Of a stretch of 25,245 bases of DNA, positions 3,932 to 25,242 are shown one piece after another. Every line of letters starts with the position of its first letter. Position 1 is the first letter of the stretch. The notes under the pieces are model-generated. The model did no database searches and was not told where the DNA came from. It was given only the letters and a program-made list of their open reading frames with translations. The position numbers and the translations under genes are program-made. Source of the DNA: Macrostomum lignano (Eukaryota); contig NIVC01005134.1 in assembly GCA_002269645.1 (NCBI GenBank), forward strand, positions 1-25,245. The letters are read 5' to 3'.

Positions 3932-4300
3932 AGTAGTATAGAAAAAGACGCTTCTAGACCCAGAGCACTTTTTTAATGACCGTTTTAAGGGTCTAGAGGG
4001 GGACACGGGGGTAAATAAAAAAACACATCTAAACACCATTAATACATCTAATCACCCATAATCACCCCTAACAATAAAAATCACTTCCAAACACTTCCAA
4101 ACACTCCCCAACACCCCCTCGCGTCCCCCTCTTAAGACCTTACAAACGGCCATTAAAATAAGGTCTGATCTAGAAGCGTCTTTTTCTATACTACTACTCT
4201 ACCCAACACTTCCAACACTTCCAACACTTCCAACACACCCCAACACTTCTAACACTTCAAATTCTCTATAACCCCTCGCACGCGCCGCAGGCGCGAAGGG
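3932..4300 (+). repeat. Left terminal inverted repeat (~370 bp); includes an internal inverted copy of the terminus (to 4198) and 9-bp CCAACACTT tandem repeats
   Basis: Reverse-complement match to 22778-23126, e.g. CAGAGCACTTTTTTAATGACCGTTTTAAGGGTCTAGAGGGGGACACGG and the inner CGCGCCGCAGGCGCGAAGGG. Confidence 0.92.
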
Positions 4301-4670
4301 GCACAGTCTGACCCAAACTGAGTCATAGAAAAGGAACAGTGTTTAACTATCTTAAAGCAGCTCACAAAAAGAAAAACTTTGCATGATCACCCCAAAGGGT
4401 CGCAGACAGTATAATGACTAACGTGGGAATTCGGGTTTCTATTATACTCATCATTTACCGAAGCGCAAACCTCAGACTCAAACTGGCTACAACAGGAAGG
4501 TGAGTTGCTTACTCATGAAAAGCGCTTTTATTATTTTCAGCACTCCACCCCAAGCTTTAATTGTGTGTATAAGAATGATGAAATCTAAAAAACTAGCCAC
4601 AGCAAATAGTCTCTTATTTATGCACAACTCCTAATATCTGTCTTTTACAAGAACTAACAAACGTATTATC

Positions 4671-5558
4671 ATGGCATCATCGAAAGAAGCAAGGATATCA
4701 TCTATTGTCGAGATTGCTACGAATTTATCAAGGAAGGATAAGTCATTAATTGGTTGCCGACTTAAAGACTTCTCGGAGAAGGAATTGGAGGCCTTACATG
4801 ATAGTTTAGAAAAGTTGGATGGGGTGAGTGAAAAGAAGCCGACCACCCAAAAGAGGAAAGAGAAAGGTTATGTGGAGAATGTGCTAGAGACAATCTATCA
4901 GAAGTTAGAGGAGAACGAAGATAGAGGAGTTAGTGTGTGCGTGGAAGCGATTACACAAGGCCTATCCTACGTTGGTCTCAAGCTTGAAGGTACGACCAAA
5001 CATGATTTGATTGAAAGATTTAAGAAAATAAAGTCATCTATTGAAGCTCTATCGATTGCTAAGGCAATGATGCAATTTGAGCAGGGTAGACTTATCTACT
5101 ATTTAAGCACGAAGTATCGAATGACAGAGCGAGAGCTGGCCGACTCATTCAACATAACCAGCCGGAAGGTTGAGGATTATAACAAATACTATCAACTCTG
5201 CCTTGAATACCCGGGTTTAATTTTTTCTACCTATTCAATGGGCATAGTAATTAATTATAGTGCTGCGATTTTCAAGAAGGCAAACAACGATGCCAGGTTT
5301 AAGGAACTTCTCAAGATGCAACACGAGACAGTTGCTTTGGTTTTGAAAGATGGCAGTCCTGAAGAAAAGCAAGTTCACCAGTGGTATGAAGACAGTAAGT
5401 GATTGCTTCACTATTGTGGTAATGTAAGTAAGTTCATATTTTTTAAAGCTTGCTTTTATATTGTAGCTTTCAACGAAGATCCTGACGCGGAAGACAAAGC
5501 TGAGAGCGCCGCCGAAGTCCGAGAGATGTTCGAAGGAGGAAAATGGGTTAAGAAGTAA
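4671..5558 (+). CDS. Hypothetical protein with a putative helix-turn-helix and a predicted 72-nt spliceosomal intron (5395-5466) that adds an acidic 31-aa C-terminus
   Basis: 243-aa ORF; MTERELADSFNITSRKVEDY is HTH-like; splicing GTAAGT...TTGTAG joins in frame to TFNEDPDAEDKAESAAEVREMFEGGKWVKK*. Confidence 0.6.
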
Positions 5559-5612
5559 ATAATTTGCGTGCTATTTCCATAACTATTAAACTGACAATCT
5601 TTTTAGTGTATA

Positions 5613-5712
5613 CATGAATTTTTCTCATAGCTTAGAAAAAATCATGTGTGTGTGTGCACCAAACTCTTTTAGTGTATACATGATTTTTTCTAAGCTATGA
5701 GAAAAATTCATG
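5613..5712. repeat. Perfect 34-bp inverted repeat (5613-5646 / 5679-5712) with a 32-nt spacer; each arm is an imperfect palindrome
   Basis: CATGAATTTTTCTCATAGCTTAGAAAAAATCATG and its exact reverse complement. Confidence 0.9.
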
Positions 5713-6001
5713 TGCTGTTATAGACACAATGCACCGAGGACAGAGAGAAAAATGGCCATTCATCGAATAAAAAGCGTCCATTGTGCTCCAGCGGAGCAGG
5801 CCATTTGTGCCATCGGGCACAGCCCGCGAACCATAGGTTCATTTTTGGATAGAGAATCTTTTGTGTTTGCGTCTTCTTTATTTTCTATACAAAAAAGAGT
5901 AAAAAAGAGCTATAAAATAAAACCGCTCGAGATGCTTGCACACTACCCTTTTCTTTAGTGTCTGCAACTTAATTTTTCTGTTACTAAAAATAGAACAAAA
6001 A

Positions 6002-6412
6002 ATGACACACGTTACACATATGCAAAATCTGAACGAATTGCAGGTAGGAGACCCAGTTGAATACCGAGGTGAGGGTCTTTTTGATGTGGTTGGTACAGCA
6101 GCGAATTTCGTTAAAGACAATATGGGTCTTATAGGCCAAGCAGGCTCTGCAGCAGGTTCTATAACAAACGCTGTAAAGGGCGGAATCGAAGCAGCGAGGG
6201 CAGTAGAAGAACTAAAGAAATTGAGAGAATTTAACGACACCCTCTCACAAATAAAAGCAATAAAAGATTTGAAACTAGCGCAGGAAACAACTCAAGCCGC
6301 ACAACCAACAGAAACCCCCACGAAAAGCACACCAATAAGTAATAAAGATATTCAGGATTTTAATAAAATGTTAACCACAATTAAAGGCGGAAAAGGATTA
6401 AAGAAATTTTAA
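6002..6412 (+). CDS. Putative virion core protein with protease-site-like motifs
   Basis: ATG at 6002 in AAAAATG context; GEGLF and terminal IKGG/KGLKKF motifs typical of adenain-processed core proteins. Confidence 0.6.
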   Translation: MTHVTHMQNLNELQVGDPVEYRGEGLFDVVGTAANFVKDNMGLIGQAGSAAGSITNAVKGGIEAARAVEELKKLREFNDTLSQIKAIKDLKLAQETTQAAQPTETPTKSTPISNKDIQDFNKMLTTIKGGKGLKKF

Positions 6413-6422
6413 CAATATAAAA

Positions 6423-7381
6423 ATGGACTCAGTTAATGACGAAAAACGGCTATATTTTATAGGAGAAATTGTAGATACTTTAAATCTAGACGATAATAAA
6501 CATAGTCACGCAATGTTAAAAAGATTGGATCGCTTAGGCAAAAAATTTGACTACGACATCAATACATTTAAACTTGCTGCGAAATATGCACAAGAAGGAA
6601 GACCAATATCCTTTAAGAATCATGGTAGAAATTATAGGCTGACAGACTCCGATGTAAAATTTTTATTGGAGACTCACACTAAAAAGGACGGCGGGTTGTT
6701 ACCCATTTTACCAATTCTTTTAGGACTTGGGGCAGCTGGAGCAGCTGGTTTAGCAGGAAAAAGAATTCATGATAACATAAAACAGTTAGGAGAATTAAAA
6801 GCAAAAGAAGGGGGTATATTACCCCTCGCAACTTTGCTCCCAATAATTTTTGCAGGAATTGGAGCAGCTGGAGGAGTCGCTGGAGGAGCGGCTGGAATTG
6901 CAAAAGCAGTAAATGACAAAAAAGCCGCGGATGAAAAAGCCAAAAGAGAGGCCGAATTTCAAAGACAGCAAATAACACAGGACGCACAATTCAAACAAAA
7001 ACTTATAGATACCATTAATAGTAGTTCAGCAACAGCAGAGCAAAAAAGAAATGCAGAAGCTAAATTAGCAGCTGGAAAAGGTTTAATTTTAAAAGGAACA
7101 ACCCAAGGAAGTGGAGTTGTCGCAGATAAACTACATGAATTTGGCAAACTTTAGAAAAAACGGGTGAGAAAGCTAAAGGATTTTTTGACAATATTGGATC
7201 CAATTTTAGACCAGCTGTTCAGAAAATTTTTAATAAGTTAGGAAAAGATTTTAACATCATTGAAAAACACGACGGAAGCGGATTATATCTCGAAATGCGA
7301 CCAAAAGCAGGTTCAGGAATTTTCTTAAATTCAAACGTTATGGGCAATGGATTGCTATTACCAAAAGCAGATCTCGAATAG
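6423..7381 (+). CDS. Putative core/membrane-active protein with two adenovirus pX-like peptides; frameshifted near 7150-7200
   Basis: KDGG-LLPILPILLGLGAAG and KEGG-ILPLATLLPIIFAGIGAAG resemble adenovirus pX (GGILPLLIPLIAAAIGA). The continuation in other frames carries GSGLYL, GSGIFL and GNGLLL and ends at TAG 7379-7381. Confidence 0.65.
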
Positions 7382-7464
7382 GCTCCTGGGGGAGGGTCTG
7401 GACACCAAAAACACAAAATTAAAAAATCAATAATTCAAACATTATATAAATTTTATTCTATAAA

Positions 7465-7656
7465 ATGGAAGCAATTTTAGCTCAAATCGACAACCCTGAA
7501 CTTAGAGCACAATTAATAGCTCAAATCGATGCACAACGAATTGCCGATAGGGCTGAAATAGAAGCAAGAATTAGGGCAGAAAATGAGATACGTTTAGAAA
7601 GACAATTAAATGATATTAATAACCCCAACCACAAGGACAAAATGGAGCTGAAGTAA
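7465..7656 (+). CDS. Small coiled-coil-like protein, or a detached N-terminus of PolB
   Basis: 63-aa ORF in TATAAAATG context; charged, Ala-rich helical sequence. Confidence 0.4.
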   Translation: MEAILAQIDNPELRAQLIAQIDAQRIADRAEIEARIRAENEIRLERQLNDINNPNHKDKMELK

Positions 7657-7706
7657 TATATATAGATATAGATATAAATACAAATTATAAAGAATATTTT
7701 AAACAA

Positions 7707-10700
7707 ATGAAAGATAAATTAAAGACCATATTAAACAATTATACTATAAGGCCAAATAACAAACGACAGCCAATTAAGTATAAAATAGAAGTTGAAACAG
7801 AATTTAAAAAACCAAATATTCTTAATGCAAATTCAGAAATTGAAGTAATAAATAACTTTTCACAAGAATCATATAAAACATTATTATCAATGGGAAATTA
7901 CAACAATCAATTCGATCAAATAGAAGCTGAGTTTGATGAATGGATAGATAAGATGACAGAAAACGGATCTGGGTTTATATTTGTATCCTGTAATTCAGCA
8001 ATAGTAAAGATTGCACCTATAGAAATTCTTAAAGGACGATCACATATGAAGCTCAAATTTAAATCACCTATGATTATAAATCCAGACAATAAAGATAATA
8101 AATGTTTATTATGGTGTTTATTAATTCATAAATATCACAATCAAGTAGAATCACACATTAATAAAATATATAATTATAGACAATATGAGGATGAAATAAT
8201 AATGAAAAACATATCATACCCAGTAGCAATAGATGATATATATAAGATTGAAAAAATGAATGGTTTAAATATTAATGTGTTTACAATTGAAGAACCAAAA
8301 GATCTAGAAGAAATTTTAACCGATCCAGAATGGTATAAGAAAAGGTGTTATCTTGTTAAGCCAGCAACTGATATAACAGCACCAGATCAAATCGATCTTT
8401 TGTACATGCAGCGCGAAAATGAAACACATTATATATACATAAAGATATTAGTTCTTTTTAAGAGAAAATAGAAATAGATATCCACTATGTAGAAATTGTT
8501 TCACATTTAAAAAGGATGAAACAGCTCTTAAAAACCACCAACGATTTTGTTTAGATCACAAATTTACTAATGCTATAATGCCAGCATCTGAAGATGCAAC
8601 CCTAAAGTTCCAACAACATTATATGGCAGTTAAAAAACCAATAGTAATATATGCTGATTTTGAAGCAACAAATGTTCCCTTAAAAGAATCACAGACAGTA
8701 TCTGATGGTGAATGCACAAAAAAATTGGCACAACAGTTTCCGAATAGTTATTGTATATATGTACACTCCGTAGCTGATCATATATTTAAATCAAGGATGA
8801 TTACTTACCACGGTAATGATGCAGCTAAGCACATGGCAGAATCATTAGTAAATGTATTTGAATATATTCAAAATCAATATGATAAATTATCAAAAAATAT
8901 TAATATGACAAATAAGGATAGAGACAATTATAAAAATGCAACAAATTGTTTTATGTGCAAAAGATATTTAAGTAAGAAAATAAGATACGAGAACATTGTC
9001 ATCTAACGGAATTATCGAGGGGCAGCATGTAGATCATGTAATGCAAAAGAAGGAAAAGGATGTAAGGAAATACCAGTATTTTTTCATAATGGTTCCGGAT
9101 ATGATTTTCATTTCTTAGTTCGAGAATTGCTTCATTTAGGAAAGGATGAATATGAAATAAATATATTACCTAAAACATCAGAAAATTACATATCAATAAC
9201 ATATGGTAAGAAATACTCCCATCTAGTTTTTCTAGATTCCTTGAGATTCTTATCAACATCTTTAGCAAATGTTGTTTCATCATTAGTTCCAAAACCATGG
9301 GATTTAGAAATAGTAAAGAAAAACTTTCCAATACTATTGAATCGTTTCAAAAAGAAAAACTATCCGAGGAAGAACTAATGCTATTAACTCGTAAGGGCAT
9401 CTATCCATATGAATATGTAACATCTGAAGACGTATTTTTTCATACCGAATTACCCCCATAGAAAAGTTTTATTCAACATTATCACAAACAAATATAAGTG
9501 AATCGGATTATGAACACGCTCAAAAAGTATGGAAATACTTTAATTGTAAAACATTTAAAGATTATCATAATCTATATCTTAAAGCAGATGTTCTCCTATT
9601 AGCTGATGCATTTGAAAACTTTAGGAATCATACATATGAGAATTTTAAAATTGATCCCGCATATTGTTTCAGTGCACCGGGATTAACATGGGCTTGTGGT
9701 TTGAAACATACAGATGTTAAGATTGATTTACTAACTGATCATGATATGTTGTTAATGATTGAGAGAGGAATTCGCGGCGGATTCTCGGGTGTACTAGGAG
9801 ATAGATATACTAAAGTAAATAATAAATATCTACCAAATTATAATAAAAAAGAAAAATCATCATATGTATTATATCTAGATGCAAACAATTTATACGGTGG
9901 TTGTATGAAACAAAAATTACCAATAGCTGATTTCCAATGGGAAGATGACCCCGATTATTACAAAAATATTCCCGAAGGAAGGGGCTGTATCGTAGAAGTG
10001 GATTTGCAATATACTCGGAAGCAAAAGCAAAAACATATAAATATCCTTTAGCTCCAGAGCATTGTTCAGTTAATGAAGATGATTTATCACAAACACAAAA
10101 AGATTATCTTAAAGCAGATAATGCAAAACATCTAGCAACAAAAAAATTAATATTAAATTTACATGATAAGAAAAACTATGTAGTGCATTATAAGCTTCTA
10201 CAATTTTATGAAAAGCAGGGATTAAAAGTGTCTAAAGTACATCGAACAATATCGTTTATTGAGGAAGATTGGTTAGCTAAATATATTGACTTTAATTCAA
10301 ATCAGAGACAGATGTCAAAAACAAATTTTGAGAAAGATTATTGGAAATTAATGAATAATGCTTTTTATGGAAAAACGGTTGAAAATATTAGAGATAGAAC
10401 CCAATTCCATTTAGAAAAGGATATTGATAAAGCAAAGAAATATTTCTCAAAACCTAACTTTAAAGACTTTATAAAATTTGATGATAACTTTATGGGTATT
10501 CATATGAGAAATAAAACAACAAAATTTCTTAAACCAATATTTATTGGAATGGTTGTTTTAGATTATGCAAAGCTAGTAATGTATGAATATTATTATGATG
10601 TTATAAATAAAACATGGCCAGATAACTATCCAATATATGCAGACACCGACAGTTTGGTATTTAAGGTTGAAACAGATGACGGAGCGCGAACCAAAGGTTC

Positions 10701-11409
10701 GATGTCTATAAAGATATGGAAAAAATTAAGGATACATGGATACCTCCGACTATCCGGATAACCATCCTTTAAAATCAGATCAAAATAAAAAAGTTGTACT
10801 TAAAATGAAAGATGAATTAAATAGCAAAATCATAACCGAGTTTATAGCAATAAGATCAAAATGCTATGCATTTAAAGTTTTAGGACAGGAGGGAGAGGTA
10901 AAAAAAATAAAAGGGGTATCAAGGCAGCAGTTAAAAAGATAACATTTGATGATTATAAAAACGTACTTTTAGATTACCTTAATACAATTGAAAATTATCA
11001 TGCTCCACAATATCGATTAAATTCAGATAAGCATCAGATGTTTGTCATCGAGACAGATAAAAAAACATTAAGTCCATTTGATGATAAAAGATATTTAGAT
11101 GATAAAATTAAAACATATCCATATGGTTTAAAAGAAGAGATAAAAAATATGATAAAAGATAAAAAACAAAAAGAAGATATAATAAGCAAATATAATGAAT
11201 ACAAAGAGGCAATAAATAATTATTATTACGATTGTGATTGTGAATCCGAATGTGATTGTGAATATAATACATTTCTAGAATATGAAAAAGATATAGATAA
11301 TTATTATTCAACATTTCCAAAAGAACTTAAAAAATTAAATAAGGAAAAAGTCTTGAATAACTGGAAGAGATTAACAGAAAAATTACTTATCGGGTCTGTA
11401 AAAAACTAA
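7707..11409 (+). CDS. polB: Protein-primed family B DNA polymerase (Polinton type) with an endonuclease VII-like Zn motif; split into at least 7 ORF pieces by small frameshifts
   Basis: Motifs in order: DNKCLLWC, YADFE (Exo I), CFMC..HCHLT..YRGAACRSCN, FHNGSGYDFH (Exo II), RKGIYPYEY, DVLLLADAFENFR, RGIRGGFS, YLDANNLYG (A), KLMNNAFYGKT (B), YADTDS (C), KMKDE, KCY, KIKGV, LSPFDDKR. Confidence 0.95.
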
Positions 11410-11812
11410 AGCATGTAATTGTTTGAGCAAATCATTAACTTCAATTTCATATATTATTGAGCACCAATTATCCTCACAGTCGGCAGGGTAACTTAAACAA
11501 TCCTTTATTTTTTTCCTAAGTTTTTTTATTTTTCTAACAACGATCTATTTCAATTTCAATTACTATTTCAGCATAAAAATTGCTTTTTATAAAACGTTTT
11601 CTTTTATCATCTATCGGATGGGAAACATATCGTATACTCGATAAATATAATATTATTTATTTTTTTATTAATATCATTAAGTTCACGCTCTTTAGTGATA
11701 AGGATTTTTATCGTATCTCATTTTCTTATAAAAAATTTACTTATTCGTCATCCTCCCAAACCGAAGCCAATTTTACAGTCCTATCACTCTTTTTATTTTT
11801 TGTTGTTTTAGT

Positions 11813-12064
11813 TTAAATTGCAACCACTCTCAGACTGTATTTCATAACAAACGCTTTAGGTTTATTAATAACTAAAACAGGAAAATTTTTAACATCATCT
11901 CCGCTTAGACATAAAATTTTTTGCCCATCTAATTGTAAAAATATTGATTGAAGCCCAATAAATTTAACCTGTCTCAAACATATAATATTATATTCTTTAT
12001 TCTCCAACATATTGGGTGTGAGATAATTAATCACATTAGAATCGGTTTTGAACCAGCTCTCCAT
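11813..12064 (-). CDS. Hypothetical protein; probably extends by frameshift to ~11740 and is followed by another fragmented minus-strand ORF to ~11406
   Basis: 83-aa ORF in TAAAAATG context; no recognisable motif. Confidence 0.4.
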   Translation of the reverse strand: MESWFKTDSNVINYLTPNMLENKEYNIICLRQVKFIGLQSIFLQLDGQKILCLSGDDVKNFPVLVINKPKAFVMKYSLRVVAI

Positions 12065-12090
12065 TTTTAATCTAAAAAAATAACAAAAAA

Positions 12091-12369
12091 ATGAAAGACA
12101 TTTATGTTTGTAATAAATGTAACGTGACTATGCACAGAGCTCAAACAGCAAACGGAGATATATATCATATGTGTTATTCATGTTCTAAAATATATCAATT
12201 TGAAAAAACAAAAAAGATTGAAAACTCATATTACTATTTTAAAAACACAATTTTAAGAAATCTTACAAGAGACATTTCTGATCCAATTTTAATTCCCGGA
12301 AATAATGTTTATTTATATAATAACTTTTTCCATTTAAATAAAGGAAAGGGATTAAGTTCGAAAGACTGA
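12091..12369 (+). CDS. Small zinc-ribbon protein
   Basis: CNKC-x17-CYSC; AAAAAATG start. Confidence 0.55.
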   Translation: MKDIYVCNKCNVTMHRAQTANGDIYHMCYSCSKIYQFEKTKKIENSYYYFKNTILRNLTRDISDPILIPGNNVYLYNNFFHLNKGKGLSSKD

Positions 12370-12579
12370 AAGGATTTTAATTTTAGTTGGATATTATTTT
12401 AATTTTCTTATTCGAGAGAATACAAAGTTTATAAGGATAGGTAACATACCTAACGAAATGTTACTGAAAAAGTCATTGGAATTTTTATGTATTGATAAAA
12501 AATTTAAACCTAGGATCAGAGAGAGTTACCACTTTGGGAAGAATATATAACATATGCATTAGAAAAACTAAACAACATT

Positions 12580-13214
12580 AAGTTCTACCGCACTACCTGA
12601 CCGCGGGCTTTGTACCCCAGTACAATAGTTTCGGTTCGTATTCAATGTTTCTATCGGAGGAGCTTTGGGTTTGTCCAAACGCAATTCTTCAATTCCATAT
12701 CGGTAAAAGTTTCAACATCTAAAATTCTATTTCTATCTTTTAAATATTTTTCATATAATCAACCGCGGTTGATAATTCATGAATCGTTATCTCTCCGTCA
12801 TCCAATATTTTTTGCACATATAAATATAATTGATTTTTATATTGTTTTGCAACATCTCTTAAAGATTTATATTTTTCCTTTCTTTTTTTAAGATATAATT
12901 TAATTGCTAAAAGTATTGATAAGTTCTGATCAATTCAAAACCTGATATTGAGCCAATTGAAATACCTAAAAATAATTGAGATAAATTAAGAGTTGGAATA
13001 GATTGTAAAATACCTAAAACGATTACACATAACATTGATAAGCTTCCAAATCCAATATTGAAAAAATCCATATTTCTTATATGGTTTGAAACTCTTCTTA
13101 CTTTTTTAGTATATAAATCATAATCATAGTTAATACGATCAACATTACTTAACATGTGACCTTGCGTTGGTTGAACCGGTCGCGTTCCCTTTTATCTGCT
13201 TCAGATACCGACAT
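12580..13214 (-). CDS. Putative two-pass membrane protein, frameshifted; ends approximate
   Basis: Two hydrophobic segments in ORF 12907-13155; another frame continues as ...QKILDDGEITIHEL..., resembling a motif I recall from Maverick membrane proteins. Confidence 0.4.
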
Positions 13215-13298
13215 TCTCGTCTATTTTTAATAGCACCAAAATGAATTCCCCACGCTCTTTGGGTATTTGCCCGGAGCTTAATAGGTATTGTATTGGAG

Positions 13299-13502
13299 TT
13301 ATTCTTTCTTTTTTCTCCCATTTAAATCCATTTTCCAAAACTCTTGAAGTATAATATGATTTTTTAATAGTTTAATTAATTCTTGAAGCTTCTTATTATC
13401 CTGAACATTTACAGTACTAAATAAAAATTTGGTATGAGATTTGAATGTTTTTATATTTGATTCTTGTTTAGGAATAGGAATAATAACATTATTTTGCCGC
13501 AT
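13299..13502 (-). CDS. Hypothetical protein; probably extends by frameshift to ~13200
   Basis: 67-aa ORF; another frame continues RITPIQYLLSSGQIPKE. Confidence 0.35.
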   Translation of the reverse strand: MRQNNVIIPIPKQESNIKTFKSHTKFLFSTVNVQDNKKLQELIKLLKNHIILQEFWKMDLNGRKKKE

Positions 13503-13584
13503 CGATGGGTTCTACTAAAAGCCATTTTATATAGAAATATTTAATATTTATAGTATATTTTTGTTCGCGACTTAGGCTTTAGCC

Positions 13585-15502
13585 TTAGGCGATTTCGTTC
13601 CGTTCCAAATATGCGGTCGCAGCAAAATCATATCCTGCTGATGTGCTACCACAAACGGCTGCACCACGAATAAAATGTGCAGCATCCGATCCTCCAGTTC
13701 GAGCACCAAAACCCATAAGAGTTCCCGTTTTATCTAAATCTCCCCAAGTTCCACTATCATATGTAAAAAAGTTTTGCCCAATTAGCGTATATGTATTAGC
13801 TGATACATTGTATGTGCTTATTTGATACCAAACTCTTTGATTTAAAATATTAATTTCAAAAAGATGCCAATCGCCGTTATCAATATTAGCATAGGTTATA
13901 GTTTGATCTGCGTCATTAAGAACATCATTACGAGCTGTTGCACCGTCTGATTTTATATTGCTCCAAACAACCCCAACTCTATCATGCCATTCACTCGCAA
14001 ACACAATCAAGCCGGCGCGGGTTGTTAACCCGGATCCAAATTCACTTGTTGGACGTTCGTGACAATATGCATAAAACCAAACCGCATCAGCACCACTTCC
14101 TGTAGCATTAGCAACTCGGAAATAGAAGGAGGCGGAGATATTACGAAAATGGGTGAAATTAAATTGCAACGCTCCAGACTGACCACTTGCTTCATCAGTA
14201 ATTCTAGCTCCATTTTGATAATCAATATAAGTAGCGTTACCAACAAAACTTCCAGTTGGAAAAATATCACCGGCTGTGGTTGGGTTTTGATATCCAGTCC
14301 AATTGCAAATTACAGGCTCGTACAAAGCGGCATCGATTGCAGGTATTCCATCCAATTTTATTTTATCATTAAAAGACATTCGGCCATCCGCCGTTTGTGT
14401 TACTCGCGTATCAACATAACCTTTAGTAACAACAGAACTGTTATTGTTTATAGTAGAGATATTAGTAATTGTATTACCTCCCATATCAATTGATTGATTA
14501 ACCACTCCCAAATTTAAATCAAGAATTGTAAACGTCTGTCTATAAATCTGGAAGGTTGACAGACCCGGGTTGGTTGAACCCGAGGTTGATGTAAGACAGA
14601 ACAATCTGAAATATGAATATGTTTTATCAAAATTTTGTGTGACATTAATTGTTTGAGTTGAGTTATTTATTGCTACAGAACTATCCGCAGGTATTAATAC
14701 GTCCCAACTTGTATTGTCATTACTTCCCTCAAATCGCCATGATGCTGGGTGCTCGGTTGAAGGTGATGGCCTACCACGTAAATCAATTTTATAACACATT
14801 ATTGCGGAAGGGCATTGGACTTGAATCCAATAATCGGTTTGAGTATTATTTGTTGCCCAATCTGTTGCATTATCCATCAAACGCTTTCCAACTTGCAAAA
14901 TCAGTTGTATTAAATGCTGTGCTGCGTATTGCAAAACCATTTCCACTCCAATCTGCATGTAGGTATGTGGCCGTTTCAACCGTTTGGAATCGATCCTGCT
15001 TTAAGGCTCCACCTCCAACTAAATTATCAACTTCGGTTTTGGTATAGGAATCAGTTATATCTCTTTTTAAATTTAAGGAATTATCAACTTCAGTTTTGCT
15101 ATAAGAATCAGTTATATCTCTTTTTAAATTTAGGGAATTATCAACTTCGGTTTTGGTATAGGAATCAGTTATATCTCTTTTTAAATTTAGGGAATTATCA
15201 ACTTCAGTTTTGGTATAGGAATCAGCAACATTCCGTTTTAAATTTAGGGAATTATCAACTTCGGTTTTGGTATAAGAATCGGCCGTATTGCGTTTTAAAT
15301 TTAGGGAATTATCTATTTGAGTTTTGGTATAGGAATCTGCAACATTTCTTTTTAAATTTAGTTTAGTATCAACTTCACTTTTTTTATAACCTTCATCTTC
15401 ATTAATATATCGGTTATCTCCGAATGTAACACTTATTCCACCAGAAGTACCACCACCAGTACTTGATGTTCCGTTCCATGAGGGTGTTCCAGAAAATAAC
15501 AT
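13585..15502 (-). CDS. Fibre/tail-spike-like adhesin (~640 aa): 20-aa repeats, discoidin (F5/8C)-like domain, shaft-like motif, C-terminal L-type-lectin-like domain; one frameshift at ~14870
   Basis: Six YTKTEVDNSLNLKR..DS repeats; WKAFD..NATDWAT...WIQVQ...PASWRFEGSND..WD; IDMGGNTITNI...VVTKGYVD; Q.GALQF...FYFRV...GADAVWF. Confidence 0.7.
15023..15390 (-). repeat. 60-bp coding tandem repeat, ~6 copies, inside the fibre gene
   Basis: Directly visible in DNA and protein. Confidence 0.9.
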
Positions 15503-15531
15503 TTTTACTGTCTATTTTATAGAGTCTAAAA

Positions 15532-15972
15532 TCATCTTAAATACTTCGGGGGGTTCCTTCGAGTTATTGATCGAACCTTTGGTTCGACTCCGTCGATATA
15601 TAAAAAATACAACGCAGCCTGTCCGCAATAACTTTTATCAAAGGTTTGAAACTGTTCGTGATAATCTCCACATAAACGATTTTTAGTATGATTAAATTTG
15701 TCTTTTATTTCCTGTAACGGAGGAAGCGCGTATGAATCAAAAAAATAAACAAGTTTCGGTTTTGAATAAACTGCTGACCAATGAACACCATTTTCTTTTG
15801 TTGTTTCAATATTAACAATGAAAGATCCATATCTTGGTAAGTCTTTTATCTCATCCCGCATAACACATCTGAATGGTTTTATTTTTAACTGCCTCGCCCA
15901 ATTTGTTAATTCGATATTGCTTGTTGTGTCTGTTCCATATCGTTGTTTAAAATCATCCCACGTCATGGTCAT
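15532..15972 (-). CDS. Adenain-like cysteine (maturation) protease
   Basis: GVHW (His), YFFDSY (Asp), Q...SYCG (Gln/Cys) in the Ulp1/adenain order; intact 146-aa ORF. Confidence 0.9.
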   Translation of the reverse strand: MTMTWDDFKQRYGTDTTSNIELTNWARQLKIKPFRCVMRDEIKDLPRYGSFIVNIETTKENGVHWSAVYSKPKLVYFFDSYALPPLQEIKDKFNHTKNRLCGDYHEQFQTFDKSYCGQAALYFLYIDGVEPKVRSITRRNPPKYLR

Positions 15973-15973
15973 T

Positions 15974-16147
15974 TTATGTTCCTGAAAAACTCTTGGTTTT
16001 AGTTAGTTTCGTAGGTGTGGGTTTTAATAGTTCCTTTCGGATTTTTTCTGCCTGTAATTGTTTCAATTTTGTTAGTTCGATTTCATAATTATCCTTTGCG
16101 TTTTGAACTTTTTCCGTTTGTTTTTTTAAAGCATTGTTGTTACCCAT
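15974..16147 (-). CDS. 57-aa Lys-rich protein with an N-terminal MG (possible myristoylation); not in the ORF track
   Basis: My translation: MGNNNALKKQTEKVQNAKDNYEIELTKLKQLQAEKIRKELLKPTPTKLTKTKSFSGT*; fills the gap between the penton and protease genes exactly. Confidence 0.55.
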   Translation of the reverse strand: MGNNNALKKQTEKVQNAKDNYEIELTKLKQLQAEKIRKELLKPTPTKLTKTKSFSGT

Positions 16148-16157
16148 TTTTACAGTA

Positions 16158-16943
16158 CTAAACCTGTTTTATACGTAAAATTATTGTTATTGACTGCCCA
16201 CCAAAACTTATTAATCTATCGCTTTCATCTACAATCCTAATATAAATTGATTGAACATTATATTGATTTAATGGGTAATATATTGGGGTTTGAGGTGATA
16301 CAATCATTTTCTCTCCAATTGGAACAGCAAGAAATGGGATTGAATAAATAATTCCACGTTGAACCAAAACTCCGTTATCGTCTGTTATATAACCACCGTT
16401 TGAAATGTCGGTTGTTATATTAATTGTATTTACTCCACCCTCTATATTTCCAACTGTATCACCGGTGCTTGATGTGGTAACTATTCGGGAATTAAATCCA
16501 AGTATGGTTCTGAGTGAATTTGCAATTGTGAAATCAACCTGATATCCGGATTCGAGTGATAGTGTGAATCTGCCAGACGGTAAATCAACACCTATAACAA
16601 TTGCTCCTGCTACCCAATCTCCATTAGCTGTTAATTCTCCTTCTATATAAGCATTCAAATCAGTATAGCTATACGCACCCGGGCTAACACTAAATGTTGT
16701 CCAATTGGCTCCGGAATCTTTAGAATATCTAAATTGATTATTTGTTGCATTAATTAATTGAGGCATGTTGAAAACCGAAAATAGTATTAAACCTATTTGA
16801 TAACTTAGGCTTTGATCGAGTTGTAATGGATCGCGCAATTGAATCCGTTGCTCGCTGGTTGTCATTATAAACTGTAATGTTGTACTAAATTTTGAATTAG
16901 TTCGATCTACCAATTGTTTTATAGTATTTAAATTTGTAGTCAT
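16158..16943 (-). CDS. Minor capsid protein (penton, single jelly-roll)
   Basis: Polinton penton-like motifs: NNQFRY, PGAYSYTDLN, SLRTILGF, INITTDI, GEKMIVSPQTPIYYPL, IRIVDESDRLISFGG; intact 261-aa ORF. Confidence 0.85.
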   Translation of the reverse strand: MTTNLNTIKQLVDRTNSKFSTTLQFIMTTSEQRIQLRDPLQLDQSLSYQIGLILFSVFNMPQLINATNNQFRYSKDSGANWTTFSVSPGAYSYTDLNAYIEGELTANGDWVAGAIVIGVDLPSGRFTLSLESGYQVDFTIANSLRTILGFNSRIVTTSSTGDTVGNIEGGVNTINITTDISNGGYITDDNGVLVQRGIIYSIPFLAVPIGEKMIVSPQTPIYYPLNQYNVQSIYIRIVDESDRLISFGGQSITIILRIKQV

Positions 16944-16977
16944 TTTTATAGTGGGGAAATCGTGCCATAGGCACGAA

Positions 16978-17770
16978 CTAAGTCTCTTCTTCCTCGTTAT
17001 CTTCTTTTATCAGATCTCTTAAGATTCGATTTTTCCTTTCTAACCTAGGGTTGATATATATATGTTTGTATTGGCTATCATCCCAAATTTTTTTACACAT
17101 ACTTTTAAATGGTTTTGTATCCAATCCAGGATTAAATCTAGCGTGTATATTTTGTAAATCATAATTATCTAAATCAAACATTACACAACAACTTGCATTC
17201 TTTTTTATAATCGATTCTAATTCTCTAAAGGACTGTGTTAGATAAAAAGCTCCATTCCATCTCCTCTACCACTAACAAAAATTTCCTTTTGCAATTCTTG
17301 ATCACCGTCATTAATACAATCATCAAAAATAATTAGTGTTTTATCATTTTTTGGAATTTGATCATAGCCTAATCGGGTTGATACTCTAACAGTTGGGGCT
17401 CGTTCGGTGATGTTTTCTGGTTCGAACCTTTGGTTCGCGGACTCCGTCCGATCTTCTGCCATTTTTTACATAAATCCTCAATGTCATCGAGTGTAAATCG
17501 CGGTTCGTCATCATCCTCATATTGCTCATATGCTCTTAACATTCTAAACAAGACATCTTTTTTTAATTTGTTTTTTAATCCATGTTTAAGAAATTCATAA
17601 TATTTTATTCTAGGTTTATTAGTATAAATTATTAAATTATTATAGTCTAGCATTCCATCGGTTGTTAACAGGTCATAAACAAAGTGTGTTTTTCCTTTAC
17701 CCGACCCACCAATTACTAAACAAAGAAAAGGATCATTTGGAAATATTTTATTGTGTTTTGCTTTTACCAT
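16978..17770 (-). CDS. A32/FtsK-like genome packaging ATPase; two frameshifts
   Basis: Walker A GGSGKGKT, Walker B IIFDD, then GR...FYLTQSF...IKKNA; pieces 17770-17369, 17462-17238, 17181-16978. Confidence 0.9.
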
Positions 17771-17816
17771 TTTTAAAGAAATAATTTAAAGTGGGGCGAC
17801 GGTCGGAGACCTGCAC

Positions 17817-19284
17817 TCATTTTACAATGGTGCGTCCCGAACAACGTGCCATCAGCTTTAGCAATTGACAATATTCCTCTAGAAACAATACGTGGGCGTC
17901 GATTGCCTGATTACCGGTTTTATTAATCTCTAACATATAATTAAGTCCAATATTGGCTACGTTTTCTTTCTGTGCCGTTAGATCATAAACAACCACTGGA
18001 TGATGTTTAGAAACTCTGTGGGTGTGTACTGAGGACGGCATATGCTTCATTTTTGGCATAATCGTGATAATATTTTATAAAATCATTAACATCATTATTT
18101 GCAATATTTAGATTAAGAGGATCTTTAACCGGATAGTATTGGTCATCAACCTGCAGGCGGATATTCTGAACATTAAACTCGTTAATTGCAGCAACTGCGT
18201 TGTCTGTTGCGGTAGCTGCTTGTGCTGCTATGTCACCGATTGAAGCCAATATAAATCCCCATTTGCTCTTTTACTCCTTCTGTTTGTTATCTAAACCAAA
18301 CAAAAATATATCTCACCCGACGTTTTGATGTCAGTATTTGCCACTGGAATGAATCCTGGTTATTATTAATGGTTCGCATAAAATGTCGACGATTCAAATA
18401 AAATATTTCCTGATCATGCGTTAACTGATTATCGATGTGTTTTAAAAGTGGGGCTGTTACCTCAATAGTTGGTACGACTAATTGAATTGAATCTATACGA
18501 ACTGCTATATCGGTTGAAATTGAGGTTCCATAAAGTATCCTAGGCTGATATCCACCAGATATTTGCAACTGTATCCCAAATTTTAATCCTTTCCATACCC
18601 GATTTGGTGAGAAAAACCCAAATAGTGGAAAGATTGAAAAGTCCTGCTCATATGCTGTTGCTGTGGTTAAAACCGCGACTGGGAATTTATTCTGACGATC
18701 TATAAAACCGTGTTAATAGCTTTTGTATTAGTCATAGTGGTTACAACTGGAACTATATTGGTATTAAGGTAAACAATTAGAGCTGCAGTATCTGCACCAG
18801 CTGCGTTTTGTACATTAGGGAAAACTACTGCTTGACCATTACCTTTATCCGGCATCCACCCAACATTATCACCAACTTGTTTTGATAAATAAGTATAATT
18901 TAAATGTTTCAAAACTCCATTAATCTCTGCGGGGTTTGATGATGTCTCAACCTCGCTCCATTAACAGTAGTTGGCTTGGGAAAAACATTTATAAAACCAA
19001 TCATTTTCTATTATTATTCCGGATCGATCTGCGATATCTCCGGCTGCAAGAGCAGTTCCATCATTTCTAGTATATAACCATCTAACACGGAAAAATGCAT
19101 TTTTCATATCCAATATAGTGTTGGTTGCGCCGATGTCAAAAGTTACCGTTCCAGTAGTAAAGTTATTTGAATTATCACTTGTTGGTAGGGTATAATTTAA
19201 ATCTCTTGCTCTGACCTCATTAATATACTGTCGGTGCTTTTTGAAATGAAATTTATCACTCCACATAGTTTTTGTTTCAGCCAT
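17817..19284 (-). CDS. Major capsid protein (double jelly-roll, Polinton type); several frameshifts
   Basis: Five consecutive ORF pieces span ~490 codons; VRYIFVWF, FNVQNIRLQVDDQYYP..LNLN, VVVYDLT; flanked by the ATPase and penton genes. Confidence 0.75.
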
Positions 19285-19318
19285 TTTTTTAAGTTAAAAA
19301 AGTTTTTTATGTTAAAAA

Positions 19319-19977
19319 ATGAGTCAATTTATGGACGTTGATGGAGAGTTAGCGATTTATAAAGAGAAGCAAAGATATTCTGATTTTGTTAGAAATTTAC
19401 AAAAAAGAAAGTTAGGAATACAATTAGCTGGCGAAAGATTTGCTGCTCCTTTTGTTAATCCTATTACTGGGAAAATTAGTGAACTAGAAAAAACAGATAA
19501 AGACTTCTGGAAAAAATTGCTACGAATACTGAGCCAAAAGAGGATGAAATTTTGGATGAGCCGCCTGCTTATGATGTTGATCAAGCTCAATTGAGAGTTG
19601 CAGAGATTAGGGCTGCAGAGAAGGGATGGAGTTGAACAATTTCCAAGAGTACCAGCTAGTATTGCTGTGACAGATTTAGGTAATAATAATTATCGAATTG
19701 GTAGAGTTGATAAAAATCGATGAACTATATAGAGAATTGGGTGGAGCATATAATATTATTATGAACCCTAGGGTAAAATTTAACCCTGATTATATACTAG
19801 GGATGAATTAGTAAGTGCAAAAATTTTTTATGATGAGTTAGGAGGAGCTGTTAAAAATACAAGTTTGTATAAAAGGATTATTTCTATAAATAACAAACCA
19901 GCTGTTGGAGAAGGATTTAAAACTCCTAGAAAACTTGTTTAGCTGCTGCGAAAGCTGCTGGACATACTGGTGTTTAA
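19319..19977 (+). CDS. Polinton conserved protein (core-like), fragmented; end approximate
   Basis: ORF 19319-19594 plus downstream frames giving ...VGEGFKT...LAAAKAAGHTGV*, resembling the L..AS..AGNT motif I recall from Maverick proteins. Confidence 0.45.
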
Positions 19978-20004
19978 TTAATTGTTAAATTTATTTTTTA
20001 TAAA

Positions 20005-20604
20005 ATGGAAACTAAAAAGATTTGTAGTCGATGTAAAGAAGAGAAACCAATGACTAAAGATTTTTTTAGATGGAGAAATGATTCAAAAAAATTTAGAAAT
20101 GATTGTCGATCTTGTGAGAAAGTTATATCAAAACTGTGGAATAAAAACAATAAAGAATATATAAAAAATAAATATCACACTGATGAAAATTACAAACTTA
20201 TTATCACCTCACGAAATAGAATAAATCAACTATTAAAATCAAATAATGCTCGAAAAAATAATCATACTATTGATTACCTTGGTTGCTCAATTGAATTCTT
20301 TATTGATTGGTTAAATTTCACAAAACATTATTATGTTCCAAAAGACTATGGTGGTGCTTTACATATTGATCATTTTATTCCTGCTTCTTCATTTAATTAC
20401 AAAGACGAAGATCATATGAAAAAGTCTGAACATTGGACAAATAAAAGATACTTAGCTGCTATTGATAATAAAACTAAATTTGTTAAACAACCAACAATTG
20501 AAGAATTTGCAAAACAATTGGTGCTATCATGTATTTTTAAGGCTATAAAAAATGAGCAATCATGCGACGCATGCGAACCGAAGGTTCGATCGACGATCAA
20601 TTAG
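20005..20604 (+). CDS. Free-standing HNH endonuclease with an N-terminal Zn finger (putative homing endonuclease)
   Basis: CSRC...DCRSC; YLGCSIE; LHIDHFIPASSF...HWTN...IDNKTK; intact 199-aa ORF. Confidence 0.8.
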   Translation: METKKICSRCKEEKPMTKDFFRWRNDSKKFRNDCRSCEKVISKLWNKNNKEYIKNKYHTDENYKLIITSRNRINQLLKSNNARKNNHTIDYLGCSIEFFIDWLNFTKHYYVPKDYGGALHIDHFIPASSFNYKDEDHMKKSEHWTNKRYLAAIDNKTKFVKQPTIEEFAKQLVLSCIFKAIKNEQSCDACEPKVRSTIN

Positions 20605-22167
20605 TATTTGAAGGAGGATTGTTAGATGTTCAAAAAGGATTAACAAGCTTACCGAGCGTTTTTACTACTGGGAGGTATACAAATGAATTACACATGCCGT
20701 CTTACAACTTCGCAGGTTAACCCGTGGCCTGAGTGAGGAAGGCAATGTCCTTGCTAGTCACTATTTGTGGCGACATCTTCAAATTGCGTGAAACCCGTCA
20801 TACAGCTTCAAGTACCACTTCAATTGAGAAATCTTTTGAAGGAACAGAGGTAACTCCTCTTCCCAATGGTAAAAAGCTTGAAGACATGGTGGCAATGCGC
20901 AGCCAAGCTCCTAAGTATTTTAAATATAAGGAGAAGGTTCAGAGAGCAGACGGAGATGGGCGGTAATCATCGCCGCTTAAGGTGTGCTCCAGCCTCATTC
21001 GAAAGATTGAGGGTAAACTGCCGGGGACTCGCTTAGATTTGAGATTAAATCCTGACAATACTCCAAAATCTGATTCAATTCCAATAAATGGTATTGACTG
21101 GTTAGCATATTATCATGACTTAGCATACAGAGATGCTGACAAGAACCCGCCCGAGGAAGCATTAAGATTAAAACATGAAGCCGATCAAAAAATGATTCAA
21201 GGATTAGATAACTTGCAGGGATTATCGGTAGGGCAAAGATTAACTAGGTGGATGGTTAAAAAGATCTTGCAGTCTAAAGTTAAATTTGGTTTGGGAATTA
21301 ATTACAACCAACATGGAAATAATTGTGTCGAGTGTTTATTATTAAGTGGTGGTGGGTTAAGTTCTGATGAGGCAAAGATTCTTCATAAAGAATATCGAAA
21401 ACCGAAATTTTATAGAAAAATCATGAACTTCAAAAAGAATGAAATTTGGTATGCTGATTTAATGTCGATGCCGAACGAAAGAGGATATAAATATATCTTA
21501 ACCATATTAGATGGTTTTACTCGATACGCGTGGGCTGTTCCTTTAAAATCCAAAAAGGGAGAGGAGGTTGCTGCTGCTTTTAGAAGTCTTGGAGAAAAAA
21601 GTGAACGGTTGTGTGTTGATGAGGAAAAGAATTTTACAATCCTCATATGTATAAATTATATCATTTTGAAAAAGGACAAGAAAGGAAAAAAGACGCGAAT
21701 GGGGAGTATATTAATAAAATTTATTCTATTTATGGAGAAAGTAAAAACGCATTAATAGAAAGATTTAATCGAACTTTAGGTAAGAAATTATGGTTTCAGT
21801 TTAGTCTTAATGGAAACCAAAAGTGGGTAAAAATATTACCAGACGTTGTAAAAGATTATAACAATTCATATCATTCGGCGATAAAGATGACTCCTCAACA
21901 AGCTTATAACAATCCTGAAAATGTTAAGGTTACTTTTGGAGAATTTGAAAAAAAGAAAACTAAAGGTTTTAAGTTGGTGATTCTGTTTATATCTATAAAT
22001 GGAAAGATAAGTTTGAAAAGGGAAGAAAAGGATATTGGAAAATAAGTGAGAAATTTACTATCAGTAAAGTTTTAAATACCAATCCTACAACCTATATAAT
22101 TGCTGATAAGGATGGTGAAGAAATATTGGGTTCTTTTTATGAGAACCAGATAATGTCTGCGAACTAA
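20562..22167 (+). CDS. PLA2 (parvovirus-type) fused to a retroviral-like (rve) integrase; exon 1 20562-20717, exon 2 21021-22167 with ~3 frameshifts
   Basis: Spliced product ELHMPSYNFAG|PGTRLDLRL...PINGIDWLAYYHDLAY (Ca loop plus HD dyad) reads in frame into WYADL, LTILDGFTRYAWAVPLKSK, CVD, IERFNRTL, YNNSYHSAIKMTP, LGSFYENQI. Confidence 0.9.
20718..21020 (+). ncRNA. Group I self-splicing intron, subgroup IC1-like, 303 nt, no internal homing endonuclease gene
   Basis: P AAAUUGCGUGAAA, Q AAUGCGCAGCC, R GUUCAGAGAGCAGA, S AAGGUGUGCUCC. Helices P1, P2.1, P3, P5abc, P6, P7, P8, P9 and P10 can all be paired. The 5' exon ends in U, the intron ends in G, and removal restores the PLA2 reading frame. 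Confidence 0.93.
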
Positions 22168-22443
22168 GTTCAAACAGTTACTTAAGACAACATGGTAGTA
22201 AATTTTTTATTACAAACAAAAACAATATTATTACTATTATTGTTACTAATATTATTATTGACATTTGTTCAACTGTTATCAAACTTAAATTTTCATTAAG
22301 TTCATTAATTGGAACATTTCCGATGTAGGAGTAATCGTGCAGCACGCGAACCATTTCGATTTACCTTCATTTTTTTATATATATTTTTCACAATAAATGT
22401 CGTTTCTGTTATAGAATAATAGTTCATTTTTTAAATATTTTTT

Positions 22444-22758
22444 TCACATAAAAATTTCACTTTCATTCTCTGAATCACTGGTTTCATATGAACTATTTGT
22501 TGATTCGGAATCTGTTGATCTAACCTCCCAATCATCCGAATTTAAATAATCTCCAAGTTGAAATATTAACTCACCCTCTTGTTCTAAATCATACATCTCA
22601 TCTAGCTCTAATGGATAAAGTTTTAGGTCATGCTTGTCGTCATATTTTAAATAAACTTCATCAATTATTCCATTCAAAATATGTTGTTTTATTATCTCTG
22701 CATTTTTAGCAACAGTCTCAAAAGTATCACTAACAGAAAAGGTGTAAACTCGGGTCAT
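22444..22758 (-). CDS. Acidic hypothetical protein next to the right TIR
   Basis: 104-aa ORF, TAAAAATG start, Ser/Glu-rich tail. Confidence 0.55.
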   Translation of the reverse strand: MTRVYTFSVSDTFETVAKNAEIIKQHILNGIIDEVYLKYDDKHDLKLYPLELDEMYDLEQEGELIFQLGDYLNSDDWEVRSTDSESTNSSYETSDSENESEIFM

Positions 22759-22777
22759 TTTTAGTAACAGAAAAAGA

Positions 22778-23126
22778 CCCTTCGCGCCTGCGGCGCGGCA
22801 GCGGGTTATAGAGATTTGGAAGTGTTAGAAGTGTTGGGGGGTGTTGGAAGAATTGGGGAGTGTAGTAGTAGGTAAAACGACGAGTACAGATCAGCCCTTT
22901 TTTAATGGCCGTTTATAAGGTTCCAGAGGGGGGACACGAGGGGAGTGTTGGGAATTAAAAAGAAGTGTTGGGATTGATTTTTATTGTTAGGGGGTTTTTA
23001 GATGTCTTTTTGTGTTAATTGTGATTAGATGTGTTTTTTTATTTACCCCCCGTGTCCCCCTCTAGACCCTTAAAACGGTCATTAAAAAAGTGCTCTGGGT
23101 CTGTACTCGTCTTTTTACCTACTACT
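22778..23126 (-). repeat. Right terminal inverted repeat (~350 bp) with an internal inverted copy of the terminus starting at 22864
   Basis: Reverse-complement match to 3932-4300; ends ...CTTTTTACCTACTACT. Confidence 0.92.
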
Positions 23127-23350: not shown

Positions 23351-23436
23351 AAATGGGACTTATATTATAATGAAAAATTCTAAGAGACCGAGATTCTGAG
23401 GAGGAACTAAAACTGCAAGACGAAGAAACATCTCAC

Positions 23437-25242
23437 CGTAGTCTGGTGGACAGCCTCGTAGGTGAGGGTGCCCGAGCGGGACACGATGCCGATCTTGCCG
23501 GCTTGTGAATATGCCCGGGCATGATGCCAATCTTGCACTGGCCGGGAGCGATCACGCCCGGACAGTTGGGCCCAACTAGGCGACTTTTGGTCTGCTGGCT
23601 GAGCCGGCGGCGCACGCGGACCATGTCGTGCTGCGGGATGCCCTCGGTGATGCACACAATCAGCGGCACCTCGGCGTCCAGAGCTTCGTGTATAGCGGCC
23701 GCCGCGAACGGGGCGGGCACGTAGATAACTGTGGCATCGCACTGGGTAGCTTTGCGCGCCTCCGACACGGTGTTGAACACGGGCAAGTTCAAGTGCGTCT
23801 GGCCGCCTTTGCCAGGCGACACGCCGCCAACCATCCTGGTGCCGTACTCGATTGCCTGGGTGCTGTGGAAGGTGCCCTGCGGGGATTCGGGATGTCAGGC
23901 TTGATGCGGTTGGGGGCATGAGTGAGTGATTGCATTGAGTTGGGATCTGGATAGAATCCAGTTGGGATCTGGATAGAATGCAGTTGGGATCTGGATAGAA
24001 TGCAGTTGGGATCTGGATAGAATCTGGTTGGGATCTGAATAGAATCCTGCTGGGATCTGGATAGAATCCAGTTGGGATCTGAATATAATCCAGTTGGGAT
24101 CTGGATAGAATCTGGTTGGGATCTGGATAGAATCTGGTTGGGATCTGGATAGAATCCAGTTGGGATCTGGATAGAATCTAGTTGGGATCTGGATAGAATC
24201 CAGTTGGGATCTGGATAGAATCTGGTTGGGATCTGGATAGAATCTGGTTGGGATCTGGATAAAATCCAGTAAGGGATCTGGATAGAATCTGGTTGGGATC
24301 TGGATAGAATCTGGTTGGGATCTGGATAGAATCCAGTTGGGATCTGGATAGAATCCAGTTAGGATTTGGATAGAATCCAGTTAGGATCTGGATAGAATCC
24401 AGTTAGGATCTGGATAGAATCCAGTTGGGATCTGGATAGAATCCAGTTGGGATCTGGATAGAATCCAGTTGGGATCTGGATAGAATCCAGTTAGGATCTG
24501 GATAGAATCCAGTTAGGATCTGGAGAGAATCCAGTTGGGATCTGGATAGAATCCAGTTGGGATCTGGATAGAATCCAGTTGGGATCTGGATAGAATCTGG
24601 TTGGGATCTGGATAGAATCTGGTTGGGATCTGGATAAAATCCAGTAAGGGATCTGGATAGAATCTGGTTGGGATCTGGATAGAATCTGGTTGGGATCTGG
24701 ATAGAATCCAGTTGGGATCTGGATAGAATCCAGTTAGGATTTGGATAGAATCCAGTTAGGATCTGGATAGAATCCAGTTAGGATCTGGATAGAATCCAGT
24801 TGGGATCTGGATAGAATCCAGTTGGGATCTGGATAGAATCCAGTTGGGATCTGGATAGAATCCAGTTAGGATCTGGATAGAATCCAGTTAGGATCTGGAG
24901 AGAATCCAGTTAGGATCTGGATAGAATCCAGTTGGGATCTGGATAGAATCCAGTTAGGATCTGGATAGAATCCAGTTGGGATCTGGATTATGGATCCAGA
25001 TGAAACAATAAACCTATTGGGATAGAGACAAGGGCCTAATCTTAAAAATACAGGCAGTATCTAAGAGTGAAGGCGAAATCCATAAGCCTCACCTGCTTGC
25101 CAGTGAAGCCCTGGCAGATGACTCGCGTATCCTTGTTAATAGCCAGGTTGGACGCGAGTGGTCGCATAGTCAGACAGGAGCCGACTAGTTTGCTAGGCGA
25201 GTCTGCTAATGGCCAAAAGTATTCGGAAGAGGCAAACGACAT
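23437..25242 (-). CDS. SUCLG1: Host succinyl-CoA ligase alpha subunit: exon ending at 25093 (5' boundary unclear) and exon 23876-23437; 3' exons not found in the window
   Basis: [19 protein letters not shown]|[25 protein letters not shown]...[11 protein letters not shown]...VGPNCPG...[20 protein letters not shown]; phase-0 GT-AG introns; the 440-nt exon is one base short (GG where GGG is needed). Confidence 0.95.
23938..24990. repeat. Intronic minisatellite, 22-bp unit (GGGATCTGGATAGAATCCAGTT), ~47 copies; each unit holds a CTGGAT-aga-ATCCAG palindrome
   Basis: Directly visible. Confidence 0.95.

Follow-up and report, generated by a model that had tools for sequence, protein, structure and literature searches.

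Introduction

Among the closest described parallels to the locus analysed here is the psbA intron of cyanophage S-PM2 with its endonuclease F-CphI, a case of collaborative homing between phages (PMC6083498); the present locus lies in a eukaryotic element, and cleavage is here presumed. In phage ICP1, loci that combine a free-standing nuclease with an empty intron were proposed to result from the loss of an intronic gene (PMC10055350). Chloroviruses and marseilleviruses encode restriction systems, for which a use against host or competitor DNA was proposed (PMC7253447). Group I introns were reported in protist Polinton-like viruses, near the capsid gene and, in the available portion of that report, with no nuclease assigned to them (PMC12220804), PLA2 (PLA2X) is a known adintovirus gene (PMC8502044), and for animals a recent group I intron database, as far as its available description goes, has placozoan, coral and sponge entries only, mostly mitochondrial (PMC11835236). 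Among the matches listed by a search of full-text literature, with few subscription papers and no supplements, none describes a Polinton PLA2 gene interrupted by a group I intron, an intron nuclease of the Eco47II family, or an intron that confers immunity to an enzyme with a short site; such cases could sit in the intron tables of the protist survey (PMC12220804), in the adintovirus annotations (PMC8502044) or in the database (PMC11835236), each available in part.

We analysed a stretch of 25,245 nucleotides from Macrostomum lignano (contig NIVC01005134.1, in an assembly of 764 Mb), hereafter the window. A preliminary description of this DNA had proposed that a free-standing HNH endonuclease cuts the intron-less PLA2 gene and spreads together with the intron that interrupts it.

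The Polinton-Like Element

A Polinton/adintovirus-like element of 19 kb (3932..23126, no strand assigned) is integrated in a genome whose Wnt genes (86 matches) mark the host as an animal. It presents terminal inverted repeats (TIRs, at about 3932-4274 and 22803-23126), pPolB, an rve integrase, an ATPase and a capsid module. Profile matches were obtained for an A32-like ATPase, pX, PLA2 and rve, mostly under curated cut-offs; the genes that we take to be polymerase, protease and capsid were named by motifs, without a family match. The copy is decayed, with broken polymerase, capsid and integrase frames. A conserved gene of unassigned role (19319..19977, + strand), the left neighbour of the nuclease slot described below, is frameshifted here, is open in other copies (222 aa) and is common to copies with either kind of slot gene.

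Several other features were noticed in and around the element. Each TIR contains a further inverted repeat, whose arms of 27-28 nt are ~210 nt apart (3931-4196 and 22864-23126), and a 36-bp perfect inverted repeat with a 30-nt loop lies between ORFs at 5612-5713; a microRNA proposed by Rfam at 5609-5716 was rejected, its hairpin matches falling below the cut-off. At 13585-15502 (- strand) lie fibre-like ORFs, in which an F5/8 type C domain and a tandem repeat of 16 aa were recognised, and a host succinyl-CoA ligase alpha exon (23407-23919, - strand) is found directly outside the right TIR.

The PLA2-Integrase Gene and Its Group I Intron

The PLA2-integrase gene is split into two exons on the + strand. 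Exon 1 (20562..20717) opens with an in-frame ATG at 20562 and ends at the first Gly codon (GGT) of a G-P-G loop, and exon 2 (21021..22167) encodes a PLA2 domain followed by an rve integrase, the integrase part being frameshifted here. Between them lies a phase 0 group I intron of 303 nt (20718..21020, + strand), which separates the Gly codon of the loop from its Pro codon and splits GGT|CC. It matches Rfam RF00028 with 65.4 bits (cut-off 50, E 9.5e-15). The preliminary description was right in that the intron has no endonuclease gene, a 73-aa frame in its interior (20745-20966) running across the ribozyme core, and in that no second core accompanies the HNH gene, the RF00028 match being the sole group I match within the window. 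Reading the parts from the sequence, we placed the guide sequence at 20727-20731, the P7 strands at 20942-20948 and 20985-20990 and the terminal G at 21020 (all + strand). P1, which has a U.G pair where the 5' splice site lies, and P7, which has a G-binding G-C pair, are fully paired, compensatory changes occur in P1/P7 among four intron lineages, and pairing of P7 is complete in 105/108 copies of this intron (type I). The last base is G in the window copy and A in 79/108 type-I copies; in the A-ending introns of the same Polinton family (family A), P7 is unchanged and the exon frame is retained. Among the literature matches listed we found nothing relevant on A-ending group I introns.

Both exons are under purifying selection (dN/dS across copies of 0.23 for exon 1 and 0.06 for the PLA2 part of exon 2), the PLA2 profile PF08398 is matched above cut-off in a natural intron-less copy (L061), and the G-P-G sequence is retained in 6/6 intron-less outside homologues read. 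Self-splicing of the intron is predicted, and the selection on both exons bears on it indirectly; contigs from 4 public runs held no joint across the intron, a result uninformative either way.

A second intron type, with a different core, occupies the same 5' site in L059 (2210-2543) and 23 other copies. It has no Rfam match, yet its P1 and P7 are paired, and its frame-keeping 3' splice readings fail to give G-P-G. In another copy (L190, contig C1874), exon 1 is followed by a 5' intron fragment, unrelated DNA and then a second PLA2 gene without intron.

The Nuclease Slot and the HNH-Motif ORF

Upstream of the intron, the nuclease slot is occupied in the window by an HNH-motif ORF (20005..20604, + strand), open over 199 aa. 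As first described, this ORF is intact, ends at 20604, overlaps the PLA2 exon by 43 nt and has its stop 113 nt before the intron site (5' splice site after 20717). This 43/113-nt geometry is a peculiarity of the window's decayed copy: in 59/70 intact HNH copies the distance from stop to splice site is 106 nt, and these copies have an in-frame AAA-ATG start that is absent here. The ORF carries the motif CxxC...CxxC, DH-x22-N-x8-N, and in an alignment of 45 homologues D122-H123, N146, N155 and K158 do not vary. The window ORF has no Pfam match, Pfam HNH is matched weakly in 2/45 homologues, the nearest named Atlas cluster is HNH at 0.88 (a lead only), a profile search of the PDB gave nothing significant and the AlphaFold model (pLDDT 48.5) is unusable; the label "HNH" is one of motif conservation, read from the sequence, without a family match. 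The ORF family is very large (38,681 matches). An alignment of the HNH profile with that of the second slot gene introduced below was rejected as an artefact, only gappy tail columns being aligned, with 0% identity.

We took a census of slot and intron states among copies recovered with exon 2, scoring 150 of 513 candidates and taking the best 138 (family A, at least 70% identity), from which 3 whose stretch had no exon 1 were removed; 125 of the resulting 135 copies are distinct sequences over the region, and all share ancestry. The intron is present in 132 and absent in 3. The slot holds the HNH gene in 98/135 copies and an unrelated PD-(D/E)xK nuclease of the Eco47II family in 37/135. The two genes have a common start context and 3' tail, and the borders of the cassette are sharp, at about 20000 and 20550; outside this interval the allele frequency gap between slot classes does not exceed 0.43 (124 copies), and no flanking alleles tracking slot type were found. 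On flank trees the slot state changed at least 14-20 times, versus about 30 with shuffled labels, and the kind of gene in the slot shows no association with the type of intron (Fisher p=1.0).

The proposal that it is the HNH enzyme which cuts PLA2 at the intron-less site, homing together with the intron, could be confronted with these counts. The gene adjoins an intron in 95/98 copies, is intact in 70/98 and evolves under purifying selection (dN/dS 0.47), and its alleles are diverse enough (49-100% identity) that specificities may differ. However, the co-segregation check suggested along with the proposal largely went against it: 37/132 intron copies have no HNH gene, and all three intron-less copies have one. 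In two of the latter, L061 and L141, from two different lineages, an intact HNH ORF adjoins an uninterrupted Gly-Pro junction, and the enzyme of L061 shares 89-91% identity with enzymes encoded by intron-bearing copies. HNH has, besides, no match in 33 loci of the second Polinton family (family B) described below. We regard this model as improbable: the HNH gene is probably wrong as the intron's partner, and looks like an interchangeable rival of the Eco47II-like gene, than which it is more diverse and under weaker purifying selection. Among the words scanned, none showed the depletion that a candidate target of the HNH enzyme would.

What stands of the proposal is its logic, in which an ORF-less intron confers immunity to the nuclease next door; the evidence favours the Eco47II-family nuclease for that part: all its copies in the slot go with the intron, it is intronic elsewhere, and it belongs to a family whose reported site, GGNCC, is the one that the intron splits. 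As a count, the absence of intron-less copies among its carriers (0/37, all 37 having the intron, versus 3/98 for HNH) is not significant (p=0.56).

The Eco47II-Family Nuclease

An Rfam search of the genome identified 28 loci of a second Polinton family (family B), thus selected for intron presence, with an intron of about 800-895 nt at the same site. In 27/28 of them the intron contains the nuclease gene that is free-standing in family A, intact in 13/27. Pfam RE_Eco47II (PF09553) is matched above its cut-off by 3/3 intronic ORFs tested (27-30 bits versus 25.9); a free-standing ORF scores 23.8 bits, below the cut-off, identity over matched stretches being 59-71% for most copies of this form. 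The AlphaFold model of the Eco47II-like nuclease (pLDDT 93) has EcoO109I as its top fold (Z 9.7, rmsd 3.7, 161 aligned), and EcoO109I and AvaII are among the top ten Foldseek matches, the first of which is DdmD. By profile and predicted structure, then, the intronic nuclease is a member of the Eco47II family with a PD-(D/E)xK fold. EcoO109I recognises RGGNCCY and AvaII GGWCC; Pfam and fold likeness do not fix the specificity of the Polinton enzyme. An Eco47II homologue was reported, in the available part of the source, as a GGNCC-recognising system (PMC12376442).

In both positions the gene evolves under purifying selection (dN/dS 0.23 free, 0.29 intronic). In family B (L069:1020-1893) we observed that its ORF begins in the P2.1 region, where the start context resembles the one in the family-A slot, and continues across the ribozyme core, a read-through also seen in 10/16 outside homologues. 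A metagenomic contig (L203) combines the same intron, insertion site, nuclease and PLA2-integrase; of 20 homologue loci scanned, no other had a group I match.

More distant viral and metagenomic relatives are mostly accompanied by a C5 methyltransferase motif (75/90, one confirmed by Pfam). A motif scan found no C5 methyltransferase in the window element or in 11 pieces of 5 other elements, so that in the pieces scanned no cognate methyltransferase stands beside the nuclease, as it would in a restriction-modification system. When the nuclease tree is rooted on the distant relatives, the free-standing form nests among the intronic forms, from which it is more likely that the gene left the intron than that it entered it; monophyly of the intronic forms is weakly rejected (AU p=0.032, under a simple model and after exclusion of six homologues that do not show the read-through mark).

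Depletion of GGNCC and of Gly-Pro

The window element contains no GGNCC at all, whereas 60 local shuffles gave 22.0+-4.4 and never fewer than 11, and about 12.5 are expected under a stricter Markov model. The word is likewise absent from 6/7 Eco47II-bearing elements, from the one family-B element fetched (about 17 kb) and from the 2.4-kb locus in 121/121 intron-bearing copies. Against our main reading, the Eco47II-bearing C56 has 5 sites, in a fetched piece of which less than half matches the element. Of 14 word shapes, GGNCC alone showed depletion in each of the four family-A elements scanned. Totals of 2, 2 and 4 sites were counted in the three family-A copies without intron, one of these being the PLA2 site. 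Since copies share ancestry and some are perhaps assembly duplicates, families A and B amount to about two independent purges.

At the protein level, the window element has no Gly-Pro dipeptide, and Gly-Pro is absent from the long ORFs of 5/5 intron-bearing elements, where 6-9 would be expected in each, and Pro-Gly occurs 4-10 times in the same ORFs. Gly-Pro codons (GGN-CCN) always spell GGNCC. Joining of the exons would form GGNCC in 98/108 type-I copies and in 25/28 family-B loci, the misses possibly including boundary errors.

A compositional or host-driven origin of the purge, in which enzyme family and insertion site would match by chance, the genes in the slot would play accessory roles and the intron would persist as a fixed relic, has some points in its favour: GGNNCC (9) and GGNNNCC (10) are also under shuffle expectation in the window (CCNGG, a further control word, occurs 15 times), and CANTG is halved in family A. 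GGNCC is, however, reduced to zero and not merely lowered, despite more than 300 near-miss sites per element; it ranks 1-2 of 256 in five elements; intron-less copies retain little beyond the PLA2 site; and a third, unrelated Polinton lineage of the same host, represented by a single GC-richer element with unmapped ends, has 33 sites versus 32 expected. We consider this explanation highly improbable. As a separate observation on composition, between 3932 and 23126 CANTG occurs about half as often as expected, and GCNGC about twice as often. A search of viral contigs for outside Polinton controls returned none apart from one weak match.

A second alternative is that purge and intron first arose against an outside GGNCC restriction system, for instance that of a co-infecting giant virus, the captured nuclease having joined later as a passenger or being a conventional homing enzyme with a long site. 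Relatives of the nuclease do form restriction-modification pairs in viral contigs, giant-virus systems were, in the available part of the source, proposed to exclude co-infecting viruses (PMC7253447), and host DNA retains its sites (7 in the flanks versus 13.2+-4.5, and 25 in a retroelement insert). Moreover, and against the main reading, B-type elements with neither intron nor nuclease are nearly purged: C273 has the PLA2 site and one more, and C1095 about 3 sites in 9 kb, so that the purge does not need the gene in cis. This model has to contend with the purifying selection on the nuclease in both positions, with its association with one and the same intron site across family A, family B and L203, and with the unpurged control Polinton in the same host; we regard it as rather unlikely. 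Around the distant methylase-paired relatives GGNCC is mildly low (319 versus 433), as expected with methylation.

Proposed Mechanism

We consider it fairly probable that the Eco47II-like enzyme cuts GGNCC, that lineages carrying or meeting it have erased this site, and that the intron shields the single site which protein function holds in place. The intron would then be the immunity factor of a restriction-type nuclease and not of the HNH enzyme. The nuclease may derive from a viral restriction-modification pair whose methyltransferase is absent here; it probably cuts GGNCC, and the elements would escape it through genome-wide removal of the word. Because the PLA2 loop needs Gly-Pro, which always spells the site, one occurrence cannot be purged, and the group I intron would break it in DNA and restore it in RNA. 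An intron-less sibling would be cut about once, at the insertion point, and a 5-bp cutter could therefore act as a homing endonuclease. The same enzyme may serve as a weapon against unpurged DNA of competitors or host, which would be cut often.

The gene would operate from either of two positions, inside the intron (family B and the metagenomic contig) or free just upstream of it (37 family-A copies), and the HNH gene may be a second mobile nuclease that swaps into the slot and retains the intron as a shield. Since host DNA is unpurged, such a cutter must be kept off host chromatin or expressed only lytically; our guesses as to how chromatin might be spared are that integrated copies are silenced and expression is lytic, or that the enzyme is kept apart from the nucleus. 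Such a purge would imply, in turn, that these Polintons express a nuclease and are in competition within cells, a point of relevance to the existence of a lytic phase.

The broader account built on this mechanism is that of methylase-free restriction in animal Polintons, in which purge and an intron-shielded Gly-Pro would have turned a short-site enzyme into a homing endonuclease, the gene would have left the intron and now rival HNH, and the introns, most of them ending in A, would be working nuclear ribozymes; for this account taken whole we see the chances as evenly balanced.

Comparison with Known Systems

If this reading is correct, restriction enzymes would be linked to homing endonucleases by a route for which we found no precedent in print, target uniqueness being reached by purging the genome and not by a long site, and an intron replacing the methyltransferase. 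It would also extend group I introns to protein-coding genes carried by elements that reside in an animal nuclear genome, and one genome displays all states of the debated transition between free-standing and intronic nucleases.

As far as the available parts of the cited sources allow, the Polinton locus seems to work like collaborative homing (PMC6083498, PMC3984707), a class in which the HNH gene did not find a place. It differs from F-CphI in that the likely partner is a PD-(D/E)xK enzyme of a restriction family, with a putative 5-bp site, and in that two unrelated nucleases alternate in one slot (PMC6083498). It differs from the ICP1 loci (PMC10055350) in that the same gene is found in both positions, the free form being nested among the intronic ones. 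The introns of protist Polinton-like viruses are likewise distinct from the present ones, which have an animal host and a site in the PLA2 loop (PMC12220804).

I-Ssp6803I and the Polinton nuclease are alike in that a restriction-enzyme fold is encoded in a group I intron (PMC3424549). I-Ssp6803I has a long site, with a 17-bp profile, whereas the Polinton protein matches Eco47II/EcoO109I, and the uniqueness of its target appears to come from the genome-wide purge (PMC3424549). The type II systems of chloroviruses and marseilleviruses involve the same enzyme family (PF09553) as the Polinton nuclease; unlike these systems, as the available text presents them, the Polintons are without a methyltransferase in the pieces scanned, and site avoidance together with the intron would provide the protection (PMC7253447).
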